DNA of 64,000 nucleotides from a virus, in IMG/VR virus record IMGVR_UViG_3300035670_000083, positions 36,285-100,284 of that record. One strand, 5' to 3'. The notes beneath the pieces are model-generated. The model did not search any database. It was not told where the DNA came from and was given only the letters and a program-made list of their open reading frames with translations. The translations under genes and the position numbers were made by a program. Each line of letters starts with the position of its first letter. Position 1 is the stretch's first letter. Below, in pieces: positions 3,833 through 36,396 of the stretch.

Positions 3833-4360
3833 ATGATTAAAAGAATTGTATCATATGACTTTGATGGAACTTTATGTTTCACACCTGAACCTATTGAAGG
3901 TGAAAAAGTTTGGAAAAAAGAAACTGGAACCGATTGGCCTTATACTGGTTGGTGGTCAAAAAAAGAAACATTGGATTTGAATATTTTTGATATTCCTGTT
4001 AATCAATTTGTTTATAGGAAATATCTTGATGATATGGCTCGTAAAGAGGAAAAGAATGATACTTTTGTATTGTTGGCAACTGGTAGACTTGAAAGATTAA
4101 GAAAAGAAGTTGAAAAAGTTCTGAATCATCATAACTTATCATTTGATAAGGTTTCTCTTAATACAGGTGGAGATACTTATACATTCAAGAAAAGACTTTT
4201 TGAGGATTTGATTAAAGAATATAATCCTGAGGTTTTTGTTATGTATGATGATAGGCATGAGCATTTGGTAAAATTTGAAGAATGGGCGAAAACACAACCT
4301 TGTCGTGTAGAAATCATAGATGTTACTAAGAGTAATAAAACACCAAAAATTATAAATTAA
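3833..4360 (+). CDS. HAD-superfamily phosphatase-like protein
   Basis: YDFDGTL (motif I), ATGR (II), MYDDR (IV). Confidence 0.8.
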   Translation: MIKRIVSYDFDGTLCFTPEPIEGEKVWKKETGTDWPYTGWWSKKETLDLNIFDIPVNQFVYRKYLDDMARKEEKNDTFVLLATGRLERLRKEVEKVLNHHNLSFDKVSLNTGGDTYTFKKRLFEDLIKEYNPEVFVMYDDRHEHLVKFEEWAKTQPCRVEIIDVTKSNKTPKIIN

Positions 4361-4364
4361 AAAT

Positions 4365-4646
4365 ATGAGTACAATAACAGAAAAAAAATCAAAATCAAAA
4401 GTAGATGAAATACTTTCAAAGCCATTTAAGTTGATTCTTCACAACGATGATTATAATTCCTTCGAATGGGTAATAACTTGTTTGATTAAAGTTTGTGGAC
4501 ATGATCATCAACAAGCTGAGCAGTGTGCTCATATAGTTCATTTTAACGGTGAATGTGATGTTAAAAGAGGTGATTATGAGAAACTATCTGTGATGAAGGA
4601 GAAATTACAGAATGCTGGTTTGTCAGTTACTATAGAATCAAATTAG
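4365..4646 (+). CDS. clpS: ATP-dependent Clp protease adaptor ClpS
   Basis: LILHNDDYNSFEWV...AHIVHFNG signature. Confidence 0.9.
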   Translation: MSTITEKKSKSKVDEILSKPFKLILHNDDYNSFEWVITCLIKVCGHDHQQAEQCAHIVHFNGECDVKRGDYEKLSVMKEKLQNAGLSVTIESN

Positions 4647-4669
4647 TAAAGTATATCAAGAAATAGACT

Positions 4670-4701
4670 GAACCTCACATTACATATACATCTTGTTATA
4701 T
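4670..4701. repeat. attC-like half site A (right arm only)
   Basis: CTCACATTACATATACATCTTGTTA nearly identical to the right arm at 7072-7095. Confidence 0.7.
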
Positions 4702-5733: not shown

Positions 5734-5781
5734 TAACGTCCGATGATAAACAATCGCTTTAATGTTGTTTATCATTTGTTA
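5734..5781. repeat. attC-like site C (48 bp)
   Basis: TAAC-GTCCG-ATGATAAACAA-TCGCTTTAATG-TTGTTTATCAT-TT-GTTA. Confidence 0.9.
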
Positions 5782-5859
5782 TATTCAGTTAAATTTTTTC
5801 AATTATTTCAAAAAACCGTTTTCTTTATTAATATATAAAAGAAAAATAATATTAAAACT

Positions 5860-6534
5860 ATGAAACATATAAAAAAATATGAAACTTTTCTAGAAAAAAA
5901 ATGGATACTAGGAATAAATGAAAACATTTTTGATAAAATTGAATCACTAGTTAAGGGAAAATCAGACTCTGGTAAAATTATATCCGAATTCTTAACTAAG
6001 AACGGAATTAAAGAAACTGGGACTGCATATTCAATTCTCTATTTGGGCGGTGCTAATCCAGGCAAATCCGAATTAAGTCACCCATTTGATTATTTACATT
6101 ATACACCAGGTATCGCTAAGATTACAGAAGATGGTGTTTTAGTATTAAATGATGAAAAATCTAAATCATTAAAAACACCAGATACATTATCATTTCTAGC
6201 AATTATTGAAAAAGATGATATTGTTAAAAATTGGACATTTGGATTAAAACAAGGGTGTAGTGTAAATAAAAATGATTATACTTTTGATTTAACAAAGGAT
6301 ATTTCAACTCTAACTTTTAAAAAATCTATGTGGTCAATGTTGAAACAAACTTGGATTAAAGGAGAAGATGAAGTTGTAGAACTTGATAATGATATTACTG
6401 AACTTAAAGAGGAAGATACTATATCCTTCAAAACCCCTATGAATATGATAACTCTACAACAATGGGTTGATAAGTTGAATGAGACAGGATGGGTTAAAGA
6501 AAATAGTAAATATTTTAAAGAATATATAAAGTAG
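5860..6534 (+). CDS. cassette gene, hypothetical with capsid-targeting-like N-terminus
   Basis: MKHIKKYETFLE; TAATATATA at 5829-5837. Confidence 0.8.
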   Translation: MKHIKKYETFLEKKWILGINENIFDKIESLVKGKSDSGKIISEFLTKNGIKETGTAYSILYLGGANPGKSELSHPFDYLHYTPGIAKITEDGVLVLNDEKSKSLKTPDTLSFLAIIEKDDIVKNWTFGLKQGCSVNKNDYTFDLTKDISTLTFKKSMWSMLKQTWIKGEDEVVELDNDITELKEEDTISFKTPMNMITLQQWVDKLNETGWVKENSKYFKEYIK

Positions 6535-6617
6535 GCAATAATCCACAAATAAAAAACACCAATTCGTTAAGTGAAATTGATTATTTTATATCCACAATTG
6601 GAAAACGAAACAGAACT

Positions 6618-6665
6618 TAACGGTTGAGAATATGTGTTCGTTTTAATGACACATATTCTTTGTTA
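6618..6665. repeat. attC-like site D (48 bp)
   Basis: TAAC-GGTTG-AGAATATGTGT-TCGTTTTAATG-ACACATATTCT-TT-GTTA. Confidence 0.9.
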
Positions 6666-6691
6666 TATTTAGTATCAAAAATTTTATACAA

Positions 6692-6934
6692 ATGAAAAAA
6701 TGTAAATGTATTAAAGAATCTTCTTGGTTTTTAATTGATGATTCCTTCGATAAGAATTCTAAATTAAATGGTGGTGGATTTTCTTTTCAAGTAGGTAGTG
6801 AATATGATTATTTTGAAGAAGATACACCATTTGGAAATGGTATGTCGGTTATCCATCCTAAACATGGGAAAGAAAATCCTACTGGTTTTGATGAAAGAAG
6901 ATTCTACGAACACTTTGAAATAATAAACTCATAA
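6692..6934 (+). CDS. cassette gene, small hypothetical
   Basis: 80-aa ORF filling the interval between sites D and E. Confidence 0.75.
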   Translation: MKKCKCIKESSWFLIDDSFDKNSKLNGGGFSFQVGSEYDYFEEDTPFGNGMSVIHPKHGKENPTGFDERRFYEHFEIINS

Positions 6935-6952
6935 AATTTTTGATATTGAACC

Positions 6953-7095
6953 TAACGATACTCAGATATATTTAGGTTTTCTTTTTAATGTAGTGTGAGA
7001 TTTGAAACACTACCTGTCAATATACCAACAAACTCTATTAGAAGCACTTACCTTCAATTAACCACCGAATCTCACATTACATATACACCTTGTTA
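6953..7095. repeat. attC-like site E (chimeric, 143 bp)
   Basis: left arm of G/J type, right arm of I/A type, inner stem ATGTAGTGTGAGATT/AATCTCACATTACAT. Confidence 0.75.
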
Positions 7096-7204
7096 TGTGT
7101 AGGTGTGATTATTTACCACCAAACTCTATTCGGAGAACTGAAAGAAAATTTTAGAAAAAAGAAGGGAGGGAAATTTAATTCAGAATATTTTATATATATC
7201 ATCT

Positions 7205-8020
7205 ATGATACTCAAATTTAATCAGTTTATAACTGAAAGACTTTCCTATTCTGAAGATGTTGAGATGATCTCAAAGATTATAATTGAATACTTATATGGT
7301 AAAGAAAACTGGGAATCAGAAGAAGTGATAAAAATAGATAATTCGGTTATAAATGAAGTAAGAATACAATTCATAGATAATTTAAGTAAGTTAGGAAAAA
7401 AATCATCATTTAATCCAAATAAATCAGATTATAATAATCGTATGATATTTTTAGAATTTGATCCAGATGAAATCACCGAAGGATTGTTAAATCATGAAGT
7501 ATTTCATGGGTGGGAATGGATTCGAAATGAAGGAAAACATTTAACTAATTCTTTTCAATTCGCAATTATTCAATTAAATAATTACTTTGAAGAAGATGAA
7601 AACATATCTGAAATTATTCAACTATTTTATTTAATGTCAGATGCTGAAATTAGATCTCATTTAAATAGTGATATATTTGAATTTAAAAGATGGAAAGAGG
7701 ATAAAAATACCACTTCGATGGAAGAAATAGATTTATTAATAGAGGAAACAGATACATTTCAAAATTATCAATTTGTGAAAAAATTTAATCTAAACGAATA
7801 TTTAAATAAATTGAGTACTGAGAAATTAGATGAATTTATATCAGCAGTTGAACAAATGAAGTATATGAAAGATGGTGAAGAGTCTGAAATTATGGTGAAG
7901 AGATTTTCTGATTTAGAGAGAAGTAAATTTATACAAAAGTTAAATATTATACACAAACAACAAAGTGAAAAAATTACTAAATATTTAGGAAAATTAATAT
8001 TATATTTCAGAAACTCTTAA
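7205..8020 (+). CDS. cassette gene, HExxH metallopeptidase-like with capsid-targeting-like N-terminus
   Basis: MILKFNQFITE; LNHEVFHG. Confidence 0.7.
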   Translation: MILKFNQFITERLSYSEDVEMISKIIIEYLYGKENWESEEVIKIDNSVINEVRIQFIDNLSKLGKKSSFNPNKSDYNNRMIFLEFDPDEITEGLLNHEVFHGWEWIRNEGKHLTNSFQFAIIQLNNYFEEDENISEIIQLFYLMSDAEIRSHLNSDIFEFKRWKEDKNTTSMEEIDLLIEETDTFQNYQFVKKFNLNEYLNKLSTEKLDEFISAVEQMKYMKDGEESEIMVKRFSDLERSKFIQKLNIIHKQQSEKITKYLGKLILYFRNS

Positions 8021-8061
8021 ATTTTTTTTAGAAAAAATTTATTTGATACATTTTTAATTAC

Positions 8062-8069
8062 TATATTTG
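8062..8069 (+). promoter_or_regulatory. Bacteroidota-type -7 box TATATTTG
   Basis: TAnnTTTG, with TTTG at 8042-8045 upstream. Confidence 0.55.
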
Positions 8070-8088
8070 CGTATATAATAAAAATAAA

Positions 8089-8342
8089 ATGGAAAATCTC
8101 AAACAAGAAAATAACTACGAAAAATTTGTTATCAGACAGAAGGTGGTTGGGTATTAAAAGAAGGCGTGGCTAAAAAGGAAGAGATAAGTTTTTTTGTTGT
8201 TAGTCCTGATGGTAAAGAACTTACTTGTTTAGATGGTTCAAATATATTCTCTTCTGTTGATAAATCTGATTTGTTAGAATCGTTTAATATGAGGTTTAAA
8301 ACAAACTGTGTTAGTGTAGAAAGACCAAATGTTTTTGAATAA
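8089..8342 (+). pseudogene. frameshifted small cassette gene
   Basis: MENLKQENNYEKFVI then a 1-nt shift near 8135 into EGGWVLKEGVAKKE...PNVFE*. Confidence 0.55.
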
Positions 8343-8368
8343 GAAAATAATTGAAAAATAATTCAATA

Positions 8369-8448
8369 TAACGGTTGCAAATATGAGAAGTAAATTTTTT
8401 CCATAAAAAAATAGAAAAATCAAAATTTATTTCTTATATTTGTTGTTA
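8369..8448. repeat. attC-like site F (80 bp)
   Basis: TAACGGTT-GCAAATATGAGAAGTAAATTTT...AAAATTTATTTCTTATATTTGT-TGTTA. Confidence 0.85.
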
Positions 8449-8474
8449 TATTTAGTAAAAATTAATTTATACAT

Positions 8475-8654
8475 ATGAAATACGAAGCACTTAAAAAAGA
8501 ATATTATGCAGTTTATGAAAAAGAACCAAGACACCAGAATGAAAAGAATGGTGTGATACTTGCACCATATAACACGAAAGAAGAAGCTGAACAAGCGAGA
8601 ATTAAATATGGTTATAGTGATGATAACTACTATGTTGATAAACTCATAAATTAA
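8475..8654 (+). CDS. cassette gene, 59-aa hypothetical (below ORF-track cutoff)
   Basis: MKYEALKKEYYAVYEKEPRHQNEKNGVILAPYNTKEEAEQARIKYGYSDDNYYVDKLIN*, fills the F-G interval. Confidence 0.75.
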   Translation: MKYEALKKEYYAVYEKEPRHQNEKNGVILAPYNTKEEAEQARIKYGYSDDNYYVDKLIN

Positions 8655-8667
8655 TTTTTATTGAATA

Positions 8668-8789
8668 TAACGATACTCAGATATATTTAGGTTTTCTTTT
8701 TAATATATACTAAAAACAATTTATGAAAGATAATAAACACATAAAAAGTTTCAACGATCATCAAGAAAACTTGAATATATCTGATGTTA
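8668..8789. repeat. attC-like site G; loop contains late promoter and gene start
   Basis: TAACGATAC-TCAGATATATTTAGGTTTTC...GAAAACTTGAATATATCTGA-TGTTA; TAATATATA 8701-8709; ATG 8723. Confidence 0.9.
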
Positions 8790-9004
8790 GTGGTAGTGAA
8801 ATATTAAAATATCTTGATGATAAATATCATGTAAAAGATAATCTAATGATTGTTGGTAGATTTGATAAGAACAAAAAATATAATTATATTCAATTGTCTA
8901 ATGAAATATCAAAGGTATTTGGTTTGTCAACACAACAATCATTAGATTTAGTAGAAAAGTGGAAAGATATTAGATTTGAGAAAATTATGAAAAATAGATT
9001 TTAA
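8723..9004 (+). CDS. cassette gene starting inside site G
   Basis: MKDNKHIKSFNDHQENLNISDVS then unique C-terminus. Confidence 0.8.
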   Translation: MKDNKHIKSFNDHQENLNISDVSGSEILKYLDDKYHVKDNLMIVGRFDKNKKYNYIQLSNEISKVFGLSTQQSLDLVEKWKDIRFEKIMKNRF

Positions 9005-9018
9005 TATTTAATTATCAC

Positions 9019-9066
9019 TAACGTCCGATGATAAACAATCGTTTTAATGTTGTTTATCATTTGTTA
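9019..9066. repeat. attC-like site H (48 bp)
   Basis: differs from site C at one loop base. Confidence 0.9.
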
Positions 9067-9177
9067 TGTGTAGGTGTGGATTATTTACTACTAAACTTCA
9101 ATCGGAGAACTGAACAAAAATTTTAAAACAAAAAGAAGGGTGGGTTTTTTAATCTTACTATTTATATATAAAAGAAA

Positions 9178-9606
9178 ATGATGAAAGATTTGAGACAGTT
9201 TATTAAAACAACCATACGTGAGTTTTTGAATGAAGCATACATTGATGAGGATGGTAATTTAAAAGACTTTAATGATAAAATATTCTATGATTTTGATAAA
9301 ATTAAAAAGTTTGTAGATTGGTTTCAAAGTGAATATAGTGATTATACTCATAAACAGGGTTGGTCTATATTCGATTCTGATACAGAAGCACCTAATGAAA
9401 AATATCATAGTGAAAGAACTTTTAATGGTAAAAAATTGAATGGATATTATTGGCAAGTTCAAAGATTAGATTCACCAAGTGATGACGAAGCATTATTTGG
9501 GAAATTACCAAATGATTATAAGGCTGATGATTTAGCAAGAAAGTTAGGTTTAATGGTTGATGAATACGGTGTGGTTTATGGTTGGGATGGACAATCTTTT
9601 TTATAG
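9178..9606 (+). CDS. cassette gene, hypothetical with capsid-targeting-like N-terminus
   Basis: MKDLRQFIKTTIREFLNE; TTATATA upstream. Confidence 0.8.
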   Translation: MMKDLRQFIKTTIREFLNEAYIDEDGNLKDFNDKIFYDFDKIKKFVDWFQSEYSDYTHKQGWSIFDSDTEAPNEKYHSERTFNGKKLNGYYWQVQRLDSPSDDEALFGKLPNDYKADDLARKLGLMVDEYGVVYGWDGQSFL

Positions 9607-9676
9607 TGTGTGGGATTTTTCTTTTAAAATTTTCAACCGAAATATTGATTAGAACGATGAATGGAACACTTACACA

Positions 9677-9766
9677 TAACGGATGGGTGTATATGTAGGT
9701 TTTTTAACTTTAAAATTTAATATATACTTATGAACTGAATAAAAAACTTACATATACACCTTGTTA
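9677..9766. repeat. attC-like site I (90 bp); late promoter in loop
   Basis: TAACGGATG-GGTGTATATGTAGGTTTTTT...AAAAAACTTACATATACACC-TTGTTA; TAATATATA 9718-9726. Confidence 0.9.
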
Positions 9767-10130: not shown

Positions 10131-10260
10131 TAACGATACTCAGATATATTTAGGTTTTCATTTTTAATATATAAACAAAAATAATTTAACAACATGAAAA
10201 GTTCAAATAATGTAAAAAGTTTCAAAGAGTTCAATGAAAACTTGAATATATCTGATGTTA
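10131..10260. repeat. attC-like site J; loop contains late promoter and gene start
   Basis: same arms as site G; TAATATATA 10165-10173; ATG 10194. Confidence 0.9.
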
Positions 10261-10424
10261 GTGATAGTTTTTTGTCACCCGAAGAATTTTTAATTGATTG
10301 GGAAGGTAAAGATGATTCAACACACCCCAATCAAGATATTAGAGACGAATGGACTAAAAGAATTAATCAATTAAAAATTTATTCAAAAATGGTTCTTGAT
10401 AACACTTTAAAAAATTATCACTAA
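10194..10424 (+). CDS. cassette gene starting inside site J
   Basis: MKSSNNVKSFKEFNENLNISDVS...; its stop codon is the TAA of the last TAAC. Confidence 0.8.
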   Translation: MKSSNNVKSFKEFNENLNISDVSDSFLSPEEFLIDWEGKDDSTHPNQDIRDEWTKRINQLKIYSKMVLDNTLKNYH

Positions 10425-10460
10425 CTATATTATATATGTAATGACCTATAAATAATTGAT
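10416..10460. other. candidate attI-like primary integration site
   Basis: final ATCACTAAC not followed by G or a hairpin, just 5' of the integrase. Confidence 0.55.
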
Positions 10461-10461
10461 T

Positions 10462-11265
10462 ATGAATGAAAAGGGTAAGTCAACTTTAAAGATTTGTGAA
10501 CAAAAACTTAATTATCTAAATTATTCTAAAAGAACGATTGATAATTATTTATCACATATTAATAGATTTTTAAAATCACAAAATAAATCATGTTTGCATT
10601 TATCATCTAATGATTTTCAGTCATATTTAGATAATTACAAATTTACTTCTATATCGCAACAAAACCAAGTTATTAATTCTATTCGATTTCTTTATAAAGA
10701 AGTTCTCGGTAAAAAGTATGATAAAGTCTCTTTCAAAAGACCTAAATCTGAAAAGAAACTTCCACAGGTTATAGATGGTGATTATATAAAATCACAATTA
10801 TCTAAAATTGATAATCTTAAACATAAGGCAATCCTCACACTAACATACTCGGTTGGATTAAGGGTTTCTGAAATAACCAATCTTAAAATTGAAGACATTG
10901 ATTCAAAAAGAATGATCATTCATATAAAAAATGCAAAAGGAAAGAAAGATAGGATTGTTCCACTTTCTGAAAATGTTTTAAATTTGCTTAGATATTATTG
11001 GAAACAATATAAACCAAAAGAATACCTTTTCAATGGATTATCCGGTAGATATTCAATTCAATCCTGTCAGAAAATATACAAAAAATATATTGATGAAAAA
11101 TCATCATTTCATACATTAAGACATTCTTCATTTACTAATTTACTTGAGTCAGGAACAGATTTGCGGATAATACAGAAAATAGCAGGTCATTCAAGCTCAA
11201 AAACAACCGAAATATATACTCACGTTTCAAATCAAATTTTAAGGAAAGTTAAATTACCCATCTAA
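10462..11265 (+). CDS. IntI-related tyrosine recombinase (N-terminal SAM-like domain plus catalytic domain)
   Basis: YSKRTIDNY, SQQNQVINSIRFLY, GLRVSE (R), KGKKDR (K), HTLRH, GHSSSKTTEIY. Confidence 0.92.
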   Translation: MNEKGKSTLKICEQKLNYLNYSKRTIDNYLSHINRFLKSQNKSCLHLSSNDFQSYLDNYKFTSISQQNQVINSIRFLYKEVLGKKYDKVSFKRPKSEKKLPQVIDGDYIKSQLSKIDNLKHKAILTLTYSVGLRVSEITNLKIEDIDSKRMIIHIKNAKGKKDRIVPLSENVLNLLRYYWKQYKPKEYLFNGLSGRYSIQSCQKIYKKYIDEKSSFHTLRHSSFTNLLESGTDLRIIQKIAGHSSSKTTEIYTHVSNQILRKVKLPI

Positions 11266-27366: not shown

Positions 27367-29583
27367 TTAAAAACTTTCCATAAACACTGAATCAAACTTT
27401 TTAAATTCATAATGTTGATAAGCATCTTCCGCTAAGAATGGTGTCATTGGTGCTAATACTTTCATCATTTTTTCTGCACAATCTTTTAAAACATATTGAC
27501 AATCCATTCTTTCATTTGAATCAAGTTCATATTCATAAAGGAATGATTTCGTAACATCATCTAAGTAAAAAGATGATACTTCTGATACCCATTTCATAAC
27601 TTCTCTAAGAACAAATTTGAAATCATAATCATCATAATATTTCATACAATTTTCATACATTTCTTGATTCATATCTAAACACTTTCTATCCCTCTCAGAT
27701 AGTCTAGGTTCATATCCTTCTTCAAATCCGTACATATTACCTAAAAAGTATTTCATAGTATTCCTCAATTTAAAATAAGAAGAACTACAAGTATTTAGAA
27801 CAGCATCTCCTAATGTAACATCATTTCCATATGATGTTTGTGCTACCCATAATCTTAAAACATCTGTATTTGTTTTTTCTTGAACATCTTTTGGATCAAC
27901 AACATTACCTAATGATTTTGACATTTTTCTTCCCTGTTGATCCATTACAAATCCGTGTGTTAATACTTTCTTATATGGAGCTCTTCCTTTCATCGCTACT
28001 GATGTCAAAAGTGAAGATTGATACCAACCACGAAATTGATCAGATCCCTCTAAATACATATCTGAAACTTCTCCGTTCATTACGGATAACCAAGATGATC
28101 CACTATCAAACCATACATCAAGTGTATAATTACATTTTTCCAAACCTTTTCCTCTCCACTTTACTGGTAAAAGTTCATCATCAGTCAATTCAAACCAAAC
28201 ATCACATCCGGATTCTTCAAATAGTCCATATAAATGTTGATAAACCTCTTTATCTAATACCGGTTTTCCATCTTTAAGAAAAACAGCGAAAGGAAATCCC
28301 CATTGTCTTTGTCTTGATAAGCACCATTTATCTCGTCCTTTCAGCATATTTGTCAATCTGTTTTTCCATCTTTCTTCTGACATATCAACTTCTTCAAGTG
28401 ATTCGAGTGCCGATTCATTCAATTCTTTAAGGTTGAGAAAGAATTGTTCTGTCAATCTATAATATACTGGTTTCTTTGTTCTCCAGTCGTGTGGGTAAGA
28501 GTGTTTGTATTCTTCAGATCTTACCAACATTCCAAGTTGATTCATTTCTTCTACTACATCGTTTGAGTAATCTAAACAGAATTTTCCATTTACTTTTCCG
28601 GAATTATCTGTTAGATCTTCTCCTTCAAGATTGTTTCTTTTACAAACTTCAAAGTCTTCATCACCGTGTGCTGGACAAAGGTGAACTAATCCAGTTCCGC
28701 TATCTGATTTCACAAAATCATCTAATAATACAACTCCTTTTTCTCCTGTGAGTTTATTCACATAATTTAATCCTTCAAGTTCATTTCCTTTGAATTCTCT
28801 TGATGTTTCACCTTCAACAACATCTGAGAATTCACCAACTACATATGTTTGATTTTCTTTTACAACCTCTTTATATGTTAGATTAGGATTTACACATACA
28901 GCTTTATTTCCAAGTAAAGTCCAAGGTTGTGTTGTCCAAGCAACTAACTTTCTTCCATCTTCTAAATCAAATGTAAAGTAAGCAGATACATCAGTTCTAT
29001 CTTGATATTCTAATTCTGATTCAGCAAGAACGGTTCTTGTTGATGGTGAATAATGAACTGGTCTGTTATCAAGATAAACCAATCCTTTATTCATAAGAAA
29101 ATAAAGCAATTCTAATTGTTTTACTTCAAATTCTTTTTTATTGGTTTGATATTTATTTTCCCAGTCGGCAAAAACTCCTAAAGATTTGAATGTTTCCATT
29201 TGTTTTTCAACAAAACCATTTGCTAACTTGTGGCATTCTTTTCTCAAATCTGAATGAGATAGCTTTTCTTTGAATTTTTTCTGAACTGCTAACTCAGTTG
29301 GTAAGCCGTGACAATCCCAACCTGGTCGGAAATCCACTTTATACCCATTCATTAATTTCCATTTGACTACCATATCTTTGAGGACTTTATTTAAAACGTG
29401 TCCAACGTGTAATTCACCATTTGCATAAGGTGGTCCATCATGTAAAAGAAATCTTTTTTGATTTAATTTATTTCTTTCATTTAAAGTATTTTCCCATAAT
29501 TTTAACAATTCTGGTTCTTTTGTTTTGTGTTCAGATCTTTGTGTAAAGTCTGTTTTCGGCATGTTCAATTTTTTTGTTTCCAT
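27367..29583 (-). CDS. ileS: isoleucyl-tRNA synthetase (IleRS1-type, short C-terminus)
   Basis: HDGPPYANG.LHVGH, GWDCHGLP, WCLSRQRQWG, EGSDQFRGW, KMSKSLGN; ATG 29583. Confidence 0.93.
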   Translation of the reverse strand: METKKLNMPKTDFTQRSEHKTKEPELLKLWENTLNERNKLNQKRFLLHDGPPYANGELHVGHVLNKVLKDMVVKWKLMNGYKVDFRPGWDCHGLPTELAVQKKFKEKLSHSDLRKECHKLANGFVEKQMETFKSLGVFADWENKYQTNKKEFEVKQLELLYFLMNKGLVYLDNRPVHYSPSTRTVLAESELEYQDRTDVSAYFTFDLEDGRKLVAWTTQPWTLLGNKAVCVNPNLTYKEVVKENQTYVVGEFSDVVEGETSREFKGNELEGLNYVNKLTGEKGVVLLDDFVKSDSGTGLVHLCPAHGDEDFEVCKRNNLEGEDLTDNSGKVNGKFCLDYSNDVVEEMNQLGMLVRSEEYKHSYPHDWRTKKPVYYRLTEQFFLNLKELNESALESLEEVDMSEERWKNRLTNMLKGRDKWCLSRQRQWGFPFAVFLKDGKPVLDKEVYQHLYGLFEESGCDVWFELTDDELLPVKWRGKGLEKCNYTLDVWFDSGSSWLSVMNGEVSDMYLEGSDQFRGWYQSSLLTSVAMKGRAPYKKVLTHGFVMDQQGRKMSKSLGNVVDPKDVQEKTNTDVLRLWVAQTSYGNDVTLGDAVLNTCSSSYFKLRNTMKYFLGNMYGFEEGYEPRLSERDRKCLDMNQEMYENCMKYYDDYDFKFVLREVMKWVSEVSSFYLDDVTKSFLYEYELDSNERMDCQYVLKDCAEKMMKVLAPMTPFLAEDAYQHYEFKKFDSVFMESF

Positions 29584-29612
29584 ATTTTTAATTTTTTTTT
29601 TTAACAATAAAA

Positions 29613-29727
29613 AACCCAAGGACTCTTTTGAATCCTTGGGTTACTATTAGATAATATAATCACATTATCTTTGGGGTATCCAAGGATTTAATCTGTGAAT
29701 TATAATTATGTTTCTTTTCATTTTCAT
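29613..29727 (-). promoter_or_regulatory. ribosome-mediated Ile attenuator (leader peptide, antiterminator, terminator)
   Basis: terminator hairpin 29613-29642 with U tract; competing AATCCTTGG at 29688-29680. Confidence 0.85.
29665..29727 (-). CDS. ileS leader peptide MKMKRNIIIIHRLNPWIPQR
   Basis: four consecutive Ile codons ATA ATT ATA ATT, just downstream of TATATTTG (29739-29732). Confidence 0.85.
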   Translation of the reverse strand: MKMKRNIIIIHRLNPWIPQR

Positions 29728-35280: not shown

Positions 35281-36396
35281 ATGAGATATTTAAAAACATA
35301 TGAGAATTTTGAACAACCCGAAGGAACAGGAACAGAAAGCTCTTGGGAAGTTGAAATAGATGGCAATCCTGTAAAGGTAACATTAACTGAGTTGATAGAT
35401 TATATTGATGGTGTTGTTGAGATTGATCCTAATGAAATTAAAGAATTACTTATAGATACTGATAGAGATCCAAAAAGAGTAGATGCGGCGGATTTAGATT
35501 ATCCGATTATTTTAAGTATGAAAAATGGTGAATATAAGAATATAATAGATGGACAGCACAGAGTTGTAAAAGCTTTAAAAGATGAGGTTCCTTTAAAAGC
35601 AAAAATTTTAAATCTTGATGATGCTCCTGAAAAGTATAGAAAAATATTTGATTCAAAATCAAATGAAAGTTATTTTAATTTATATCTTGATTCTAAAATA
35701 GGAGTAGATGAACTTATCAATAGTTTAGAATTAAGAATTGATGAGAATATAATTTCTAATTTTAAGTCTTTTATTGATAAGGGTAAGAAATTAACAGAAG
35801 AATCTATAAATAAGATATTAGGATGGATATCTAAACAACTTGAAGTTGAATCTTATATTTTTGATAAAATTATTGAAAATTTAAAAAAGGTAGGTAGTAA
35901 AATCATAGAACTTTTATTGGCAGTTTTAAAAAGAATAAAAGATTTTAAAGATAAACATCCTAAAATATTCAAAGCGATTGTAATTATTCTTACTATAGTT
36001 ATTATTATACTTATATCTGCGGTTGTTGCTTATTCACAAACCACTGGTCAACCTGTGAGTATTGAGGAATTCGGTATAAACTCAGAGATGTTAGATGCGA
36101 TGATAGGATTCTCATCTCAGTATAAGTTAGATCCAAAAATACAAGCAGCATTGGTTGACTTAAAAGATGGATCAATTGATTTAGATTGGAATAATGTTGA
36201 GACATCTAAATCATATATTGAATCAATAAGAAAATCAATGATATCTATGAAAGATGAGGAATATTTTTGGCATAGATTCAGTAATTGGATTGAAATAGGT
36301 GAAAAATATGTTGATGTAATTCACAAAAAAGTTACAATGGTTGGACAAGATTCAAGTTTTCAAAGTGATACTTATAGTTTTTATACAAAAAAATAG
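35281..36396 (+). CDS. ParB/Srx-like N-terminal domain protein with TM helix
   Basis: MRYLKTYENFE; YPII...IIDGQHRVVKA; AIVIILTIVIIILISAVVA. Confidence 0.65.
   Translation: MRYLKTYENFEQPEGTGTESSWEVEIDGNPVKVTLTELIDYIDGVVEIDPNEIKELLIDTDRDPKRVDAADLDYPIILSMKNGEYKNIIDGQHRVVKALKDEVPLKAKILNLDDAPEKYRKIFDSKSNESYFNLYLDSKIGVDELINSLELRIDENIISNFKSFIDKGKKLTEESINKILGWISKQLEVESYIFDKIIENLKKVGSKIIELLLAVLKRIKDFKDKHPKIFKAIVIILTIVIIILISAVVAYSQTTGQPVSIEEFGINSEMLDAMIGFSSQYKLDPKIQAALVDLKDGSIDLDWNNVETSKSYIESIRKSMISMKDEEYFWHRFSNWIEIGEKYVDVIHKKVTMVGQDSSFQSDTYSFYTKK

Follow-up and report, generated by a model that had tools for sequence, protein, structure and literature searches.

Hairpin sites upstream of a phage recombinase gene

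The window analysed here is a stretch of 64,000 nucleotides (positions 36,285 to 100,284 of IMG/VR virus record IMGVR_UViG_3300035670_000083) and belongs to a 100-kb fragment from the genome of a large, AT-rich phage (G+C content 27%); by the CheckV estimate, the fragment represents ∼18% of the phage genome. The phage encodes a T4-type large terminase and a Gp23-type capsid protein, the latter 66% identical to those of uncultured 640-kb phages. From a ClpS gene (4365–4646) to a tyrosine recombinase gene (10456–11265, + strand), the window is filled with small + strand open reading frames (ORFs) without Pfam matches. In this region lie three hairpin-forming sites of 48 nt, named C (5734–5781), D (6618–6665) and H (9019–9066). 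The pattern TAAC, 16 nt, TCGYTTTAATG has three matches in the window, at positions 5734, 6618 and 9019, all on the + strand and with 0 mismatches. Judging from the sequences, C, D and H are probably the minimal size class of recombination sites of a phage-borne, integron-like cassette system; we read the sites as analogues of attC that form a distinct class.

We found 207 relatives of the recombinase in IMG/VR and kept 80 loci (58–81% identity, contigs of up to 362 kb); a larger sample of 200 related phage loci was used for a covariation test based on the loop alone. The related loci are metagenomic and some duplicate one contig; they were deduplicated by sequence, and the events seen in them are phylogenetically non-independent. 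Geometry, covariation, strand bias, end pairing, linkage to the recombinase and breakpoints at TAAC are directly computed. All results are computational, and it is from them that we infer the cleaved bond, the single-stranded intermediate and the catalyst.

Geometry and covariation of the 48-nt sites

According to the original prediction, C, D and H share one geometry: TAAC, 5 nt, an 11-bp stem, the loop TCG(C/T)TTTAATG, TT and GTTA. All three match it exactly, and the stem of D, which is unlike that of C and H at most positions, indeed still pairs perfectly. With a covariance model of the 48-nt class the sites score 73.5 bits (C, which has C at loop position 4), 69.9 bits (D, with its different, fully compensated stem; an identical copy is found in related locus L011) and 73.3 bits (H, whose stem family is the commonest in related phages). 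The asymmetry of 5 versus 2 nt noted earlier at the stem base is resolved by DNA folding into a 12-bp stem with a clean 3-nt bulge in the 5′ arm. On the + strand, a G·T pair joins the G that follows TAAC to the T that precedes GTTA, the fifth spacer base, also a G, pairs with the second T, and the 3 bases between them bulge from the 5′ arm. Folding each strand as DNA gave a continuous helix for the + strand and a 5 × 2 internal loop for the − strand, the latter being the less stable in 5/5 window sites folded.

The proposal that structure is kept over sequence is borne out by the related loci. Across 31 distinct sites, double changes were found at 11 of 12 stem pairs and 98% of cells are paired. 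None of 500 shuffles of this alignment matched the values observed for the 12-bp stem, and the signal was lost when the 3′ partner columns were slid by 1–3 positions. These 31 sites had been pre-selected for pairing; in the second test sites were selected by the loop motif alone. Under this selection, an uninterrupted 12-bp stem was present in 130 of 207 distinct contexts. The 145 contexts of the TAAC…GTTA type contain 33 different 5′ arms, with 88–100% pairing at each stem position and two to four Watson–Crick pair types at 11 of 12 positions. Pairs 6 and 7 from the loop (A-T and T-A) are nearly invariant. The pattern of the 48-nt sites is far above chance. The covariance model returned 151 matches in related loci (E ≤ 0.01 in 1.28 Mb, both strands searched), all of them on the + strand; ∼84 belong to the 48-nt class and the rest to longer classes that are recognised by their shared base.

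A geometry scan revealed size classes of 48, ∼79, ∼88 and ∼125 nt, with 361 sites on the recombinase strand versus 16 on the opposite one. A grid of arm offsets has a sharp maximum where the 5′ arm is 3 nt longer, and a pyrimidine-rich 3-nt bulge between two G·T pairs is common to ∼360 sites of all four size classes. The 48-nt class comprises 78 copies with 32 distinct sequences. Selected by geometry alone (48–49 nt), 32/32 carry one 11-nt loop with at most one change, and there are almost no other short sites in the related loci; longer classes have varying loops. The cores TAAC and GTTA are found in 340 of 370 sites collected with a relaxed core. Flanking positions are A or C at −1 and T or G at +1, and positions further out are cassette-specific. 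Mapping of the cleaved bond by variant cores (CAAC, GTTG and others) was abandoned, such cores being too rare and noisy.

At least 119 IMG/VR loci match the pattern TAACG-N15-loop, and the full hairpin is present in 96 of the 119 matches listed. For bacteria and archaea, 120 matching loci were listed: 25 have the full hairpin, nearly all on short contigs of metagenome bins, and we dismissed the other 95 as chance matches without a hairpin (16 fixed bases scanned against 596 Gb). Four sites of the family lie on one strand of a bacterial chromosome assembly (L138, from the chromosome of a Fluviicola sp. metagenome-assembled genome, CP121319.1, 2,528,001–2,536,000; and L322). On the opposite strand of the Fluviicola assembly, ∼21 kb away, lies a recombinase homologue (55% identity) that is truncated. 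These sites could be a prophage, a bacterial array or a mis-assembly.

The recombinase and its link to the arrays

The recombinase has 269 amino acids, belongs to the Xer/IntI clade and is made up of the domains Phage_integrase and Phage_int_SAM_4. Among NCBIfam models it comes closest to archaeal XerA and integron integrase, with every score below the cut-off, including those for both integron-integrase models. The protein is colinear with the XerA structure 4a8e over residues 22–264. Compared with VchIntIA (2a3v), 37 residues of the phage protein (175–212) span 86 of IntI (174–260), and the IntI-specific insertion is absent. No other tyrosine recombinase is encoded on the 100-kb contig. Integrases of two cultured flavobacterial phages, Polaribacter phage Freya_10 (L081) and Cellulophaga phage Ingeline_1 (L082), are 37–40% identical to it, and no TAAC…GTTA hairpins of the present geometry were found in the Freya and Ingeline phages. 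Directly before their integrase genes lie inverted ends of the form GTTAGCAAC…GTTGCTAAC (L081, 3950–4150; L082, 7500–7710), and Freya isolates differ by up to 4 kb upstream of the integrase gene.

In all loci, all sites are located upstream of the recombinase gene, on the same strand and within 10 kb. In 64 of 68 loci, the last ∼60 nt before the start codon contain a TAAC and, after it, a conserved TAT-N-ATATATA box. The window has this arrangement at 10418–10437 (+ strand), where the terminal cassette end CACTAAC and the box form what may be an attI-like junction in the recombinase promoter region; CACTAAC (10418–10424) is complementary to the GTTAGTG that opens the last cassette. The stop codon TAA (10422–10424) of the last cassette ORF (10194–10424) falls within this terminal TAAC core. 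Across loci, the terminal TAAC is preceded by bases that are complementary to the opening of the last cassette at 9.1 of 11 positions, a level of pairing equal to that of internal ends. Since the genes flanking the module are unrelated among loci, recombinase and array stay together across unrelated phages. None of the genes flanking the module in the window (HAD, ClpS, TerL) was found beside the recombinase in the 80 related loci.

The original prediction had likened the sites to attC, and the arrays agree with this, being located next to a tyrosine recombinase gene and having cassettes whose two ends pair across the gene. Bases +1 to +11 after GTTA show 72–88% complementarity per position to bases −1 to −11 before the next TAAC, the sole exception being position 7, a conserved G·T. 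Complementarity of the same bases to the upstream flank of their own site is at the level of random pairing. Because of this pairing across the gene, every gene-bearing segment has an inverted repeat of its own that closes it, which is what one would expect of units that go through a circular stage with the hairpin extended by these ends. The cassette body that goes with site H (9067–9676, + strand; ORF 9178–9606) opens with 11 nt that pair with the last 11 nt ahead of the following TAAC, again with G·T at position 7. End pairing shows a weak gradient with distance from the recombinase (Spearman −0.11, P-value 0.045), to which we give no weight.

The cassette genes point towards the recombinase, and boxes resembling TAATATATA precede individual ORFs. 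In 83 of 129 long sites (113–139 nt) the downstream ORF starts inside the loop. From these sequences, cassettes appear to bring their own putative promoters, often within the hairpin loop.

Folding strand and crossover side

Read on the + strand, the non-Watson–Crick cells of the stems are G·T or T·G in 687 cases versus A·C or C·A in 57. Wobbles are fixed at the stem base and at pair 14 of long sites. With DNA parameters, the + strand is the more stable one in 259 of 285 distinct sites. The data indicate that the coding (+) strand is the one that would fold.

Homology blocks between arrays have the T of TAAC as their first base and the C of this core, or the G that follows it, as their last, the resolution of the crossover being no finer than the invariant 4–6 nt. 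Beside long, diverse sites, left ends of blocks lie at TAAC in 33 cases versus 9 at GTTA, and right ends in 30 versus 7. Both clean array-internal indels that we found are bounded by TAAC. The indel between loci L262 and L285 amounts to one unit, a 90-nt hairpin plus its body, that is extra in L262 and has TAACGG at both junctions, while a 48-nt site remains with its own downstream body. Moreover, the upstream hairpin is the conserved neighbour of the gene in six of seven informative pairs of homologous cassettes in different contexts. Taken together, the breakpoints, the indels, the joint travel of hairpin and gene, the gene starts, the wobble bias and the folding energy argue, by majority, that the mobile unit is probably a hairpin with its downstream gene, exchanged within TAAC(G). 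We also considered the canonical integron orientation (crossover at G|TTA, hairpin travelling with the upstream gene, folding of the − strand). It was rejected because of the position of the recombinase at the other array end, the G·T bias, the breakpoint statistics and the co-travel of hairpin and downstream gene.

We suggest the following mechanism. On the + strand a site would consist of TAAC, G, a 3-nt bulge, a stem of at least 12 bp that opens with G·T and has a conserved T-A/A-T step at pairs 6–7, the loop, the return arm, T and GTTA. The single-stranded + strand, that is, the coding strand of the cassette, would fold into this hairpin. In a circular excised cassette its own two ends would add 11 bp to the helix, with the fixed G·T at position 7. 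Once folded, the site would be bound by the neighbouring 269-residue Xer-like enzyme, which would exchange a single strand within TAAC(G), presumably with a cut between A and C like that at A|C in the bottom strand of attC. The TAAC next to the recombinase promoter would be the entry point of new units.

Several observations weigh against this scheme. About one fifth of the mapped breakpoints lie at GTTA, and a comparison of loci L023 and L006 at the level of single-nucleotide polymorphisms points to the GTTA side, which is why TAAC as the crossover side is a majority verdict and not a rule. RNA structure would likewise produce a G·T bias and a strictly strand-specific loop, since every cassette is transcribed from the + strand. 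With complementarity to the own site at chance level, the outer helix is unpaired within arrays, which makes it hard to explain how the substrate for excision is recognised. In the window, cassettes behind C, D and E have poorly paired ends; they may be fossils. Finally, the recombinase has ∼49 residues fewer than IntI, in the I2 region. I2 is held necessary for single-strand recombination by IntI (PMC7790495).

Alternative explanations

The RNA explanation just touched upon holds that the hairpins are mainly terminators, mRNA 3′ stabilisers or processing sites and that any role in DNA is incidental. It would account for genes and hairpins all lying on one strand with a strong G·T (in RNA, G·U) bias there, and for a loop motif that is strand-specific even in the reversed GTTA…TAAC context; attC sites themselves are thought to be weak terminators (PMC9892861). 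However, pairing of ends across genes, invariant 4-nt cores, breakpoints at TAAC, co-travel of hairpin and downstream gene, and array ends at the recombinase promoter are left unexplained by it. Nor do the hairpins look like the evident terminators of the phage, which are short GC-rich stems followed by T runs, whereas the stems here are AT-rich, with an 11-nt loop and no T run. We regard a mainly RNA-based function as improbable.

A similarly low probability is assigned to the view that the sites are regulatory repeats of the PeSL kind that shuffle by homologous recombination, beside a recombinase that is an unrelated enzyme of lysogeny or dimer resolution. PeSL cassettes of T4-type phages carry promoter/stem-loop repeats, circular intermediates have been proposed for them, and PeSLs are documented to give mini-circles (PMC2839356, PMC4122927). 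The likeness is considerable: PeSLs flank small ORFan genes in hyperplastic regions of T4-like phages, the phage studied here has a T4-like terminase and capsid, many sites contain promoter-like boxes, and some hybrids have crossovers in conserved loop or promoter regions. But PeSLs are conserved in sequence, driven by homology and served by no dedicated enzyme, while the present sites have 4–5 fixed nt, covarying stems and an attached recombinase. Most sites share only these 4–5 nt, so that homology cannot guide exchange, and breakpoints fall there anyway; stems covary instead of being conserved; and in 64 of 68 loci, on otherwise unrelated backbones, the array ends in a fusion with the recombinase.

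Even less probable is a conventional duplex site of a tyrosine recombinase, in which the 48-nt element would offer inverted arms and the loop would be the exchange spacer. The 12-bp inverted arms around a near-invariant, asymmetric 11-nt centre would suit such a site, as would a few hybrid sites in which left and right arms of different stem families are joined at the loop. Arm sequences, however, vary to an extent that makes them unreadable by a protein, and an 11-nt spacer exceeds the 6–8 bp of known tyrosine recombinases. In addition, the longer classes share the geometry and have no such centre, and most breakpoints lie at TAAC and not in the loop. Least credible is a single-strand transposon (IS200/IS605 or REP/RAYT type) with the hairpins as its ends or targets, in spite of the strand-specific hairpin beside a fixed tetranucleotide: PF01797, the Y1 HUH transposase, has no match on the 100-kb contig (itself only ∼18% of the genome), the array-linked enzyme is always a tyrosine recombinase, and units, like integron cassettes, have paired ends and the same core, inverted, on either side.

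Comparison with integrons and other systems

The integron-like cassette system that we favour has much in common with integrons (IntI1; VchIntIA and VCR of Vibrio cholerae), which likewise place a recombinase of the Xer/IntI clade beside an array of mostly single-gene cassettes. Like attC, the phage sites are imperfect palindromes with AAC…GTT cores that keep their structure while the sequence varies, and TAAC and GTTA conform to the inverted core boxes R″ (RYYYAAC) and R′ (GTTRRRY). In both, the folded strand has a G after AAC, the two strands are made unequal by extra unpaired bases, the loop is ∼10 to >100 nt long, and cassette ends pair over at least 9–11 nt in the circular form. The predicted crossover in the AAC/GTT core of one R box is shared as well, and so is the insertion point in the promoter region of the recombinase, adjacent to the 5′ end of its gene. 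Viewed from the recombinase, the hairpin lies at the far end of the cassette and the strand that reads 5′-AAC…GTT-3′ away from it is the one predicted to fold; in attC the bottom strand, with AAC…GTT and G after AAC, folds (PMC2727003).

The differences from integrons concern both site and enzyme. The folded strand would be the coding strand here, in contrast to the bottom, antisense strand of attC; functional polarity thus appears mirrored relative to the gene and canonical relative to the recombinase and the insertion point. A 3-nt bulge stands right after AAC-G on the predicted crossover arm, whereas attC has 2–3 isolated bases on the opposite arm, R″-L″ (a G in L″ and a T 6–8 nt further). 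The phage stems are continuous, without the open central spacer of attC: on the + strand, a G·T pair on each side of the bulge closes this region. Further departures from attC are the fixed wobbles (G·T) and the near-invariant loop of the minimal class. The phage enzyme is shorter where IntI has I2, the segment that reads the extrahelical bases of attC, and cassette genes face the recombinase with their own putative promoters, in contrast to promoterless integron cassettes, which share a common Pc and point away from intI. The suggestion that the sites form a distinct class can thus be upheld on four counts: the contiguous 3-nt bulge beside the AAC-G core, the fixed G·T pairs, the near-invariant loop of the minimal class and an enzyme that lacks the IntI insertion.

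Clusters of attC sites without an integrase (CALINs) have been reported in phages, e.g. Polaribacter phage P12002L, where they were found by IntegronFinder and tested with IntI1 (PMC9892861). They resemble the present arrays in being attC-like arrays of virulent phage genomes, including those of phages of marine Bacteroidota. CALINs were read as parts of bacterial integrons, and the descriptions given include neither a dedicated phage recombinase nor mirrored polarity nor a 48-nt class (PMC9892861). Beyond such attC clusters in phages, we found no description in the literature of the recombinase-linked phage system or of its site design. New here are the statistics of the minimal class, the loop-only covariation test, the anatomy of bulge and wobbles, and the mapping of the crossover to TAAC. 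Archaeal XerA is the closest full-length relative of the phage enzyme in both sequence and structure. The dif site, used by XerC/D in the resolution of chromosome dimers, is a single conserved duplex site of ∼28 bp, unlike the array of variable hairpins of the phage.

It is quite possible, though we hold this far more tentatively than the assignment of the sites, that a Xer-like enzyme without I2 recombines folded single strands on a mirror-image attC-type site. In such a site the coding strand would fold, the cut arm would carry the 3-nt bulge, fixed G·T wobbles would impose the choice of strand and the 11-nt loop of the minimal class would serve recognition. Cassette capture in giant phages would then have a second solution, independent or ancestral. 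The same cassette logic combined with another site design and an enzyme without I2 would allow a direct test of the features needed for single-strand cassette capture. A 48-nt site is small enough to be synthesised and its natural compensatory variants are now catalogued, which makes it an ideal substrate for binding and recombination assays. Overall, the system points to a dedicated engine that would shuffle ORFan genes in giant phages of Bacteroidota-type hosts and help to explain how these phages renew their accessory genes.

The conserved loop

The loop motif of the minimal class occurs in 100 copies on the + strand and in none on the − strand. It also caps a reverse hairpin (GTTA, 5 nt, loop, 5 nt, TAAC), with 9 copies in the first 80 loci and 18 distinct contexts in the larger set; these copies are ‘empty’ cassette bodies of 21 nt with the opposite core polarity. 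Examples of empty bodies lie at 2333–2353 and 2724–2744 of L028, and others in L001, L008, L010 and L030 directly before the recombinase. Hybrid sites in which arms of two stem families are joined at the loop were observed at 3888–3941 of L037 (also in L038 and L039) and near 7278 of L011, which suggests occasional exchange within the loop. The ATG of the loop opens a long frame in 11 of 68 sites.

Sites of the attC type have no counterpart of this loop, their terminal structure being free to vary. One may speculate that the loop is a structured cap (with possible T·G, G·A and T-A contacts) or a point of protein contact. Equally speculatively, it might stand in for the distal stem and wobble that longer sites have at an equal distance from the core.

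Other sites and genes of the window

The remaining sites of the window lie on the + strand as well. Sites F (8369–8448; 80 nt, with a ∼21-bp stem that includes G·T pairs) and I (9677–9766; 90 nt, 34.6 bits with the 48-nt model) have the geometry of C, D and H. Site G (8668–8789; 122 nt) contains in its loop a TAATATATA box that resembles a promoter, together with the start codon (ATG, 8723) of the downstream ORF, and site J (10131–10260; 130 nt), with arms as in G, has in its loop a promoter-like box of the same sequence and the start of ORF 10194–10424. In both, the downstream ORF continues through the 3′ arm and GTTA. G and J share 20-nt arms and encode a similar N-terminal peptide of ∼24 residues; the C-terminal parts are unrelated beyond GTTA. 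Site E (6953–7095) looks like a degenerate fusion in which a G/J-type site has contributed the 5′ part and an I-type site the 3′ part; its folding is not that of a regular site, and the geometry scan of the window missed it. At the distal array end (4667–4697, + strand) a lone 3′ arm with GTTA lacks a 5′ partner, probably as a decayed site. Cassettes nearer the recombinase (behind F to J) are intact.

Genes of a HAD_SAK_1 phosphatase-like protein and the ClpS adaptor homologue directly precede the array (3833–4646, + strand). On the − strand, a 215-residue ORF (2044–2691) has a long low-complexity stretch of repeated short G/Q/A-rich units, with DNA repeats at 2100–2300. Also on the − strand, 27367–29619 encode a class I aminoacyl-tRNA synthetase of 750 amino acids (tRNA-synt_1, E-value 2e–112, plus an anticodon-binding domain).

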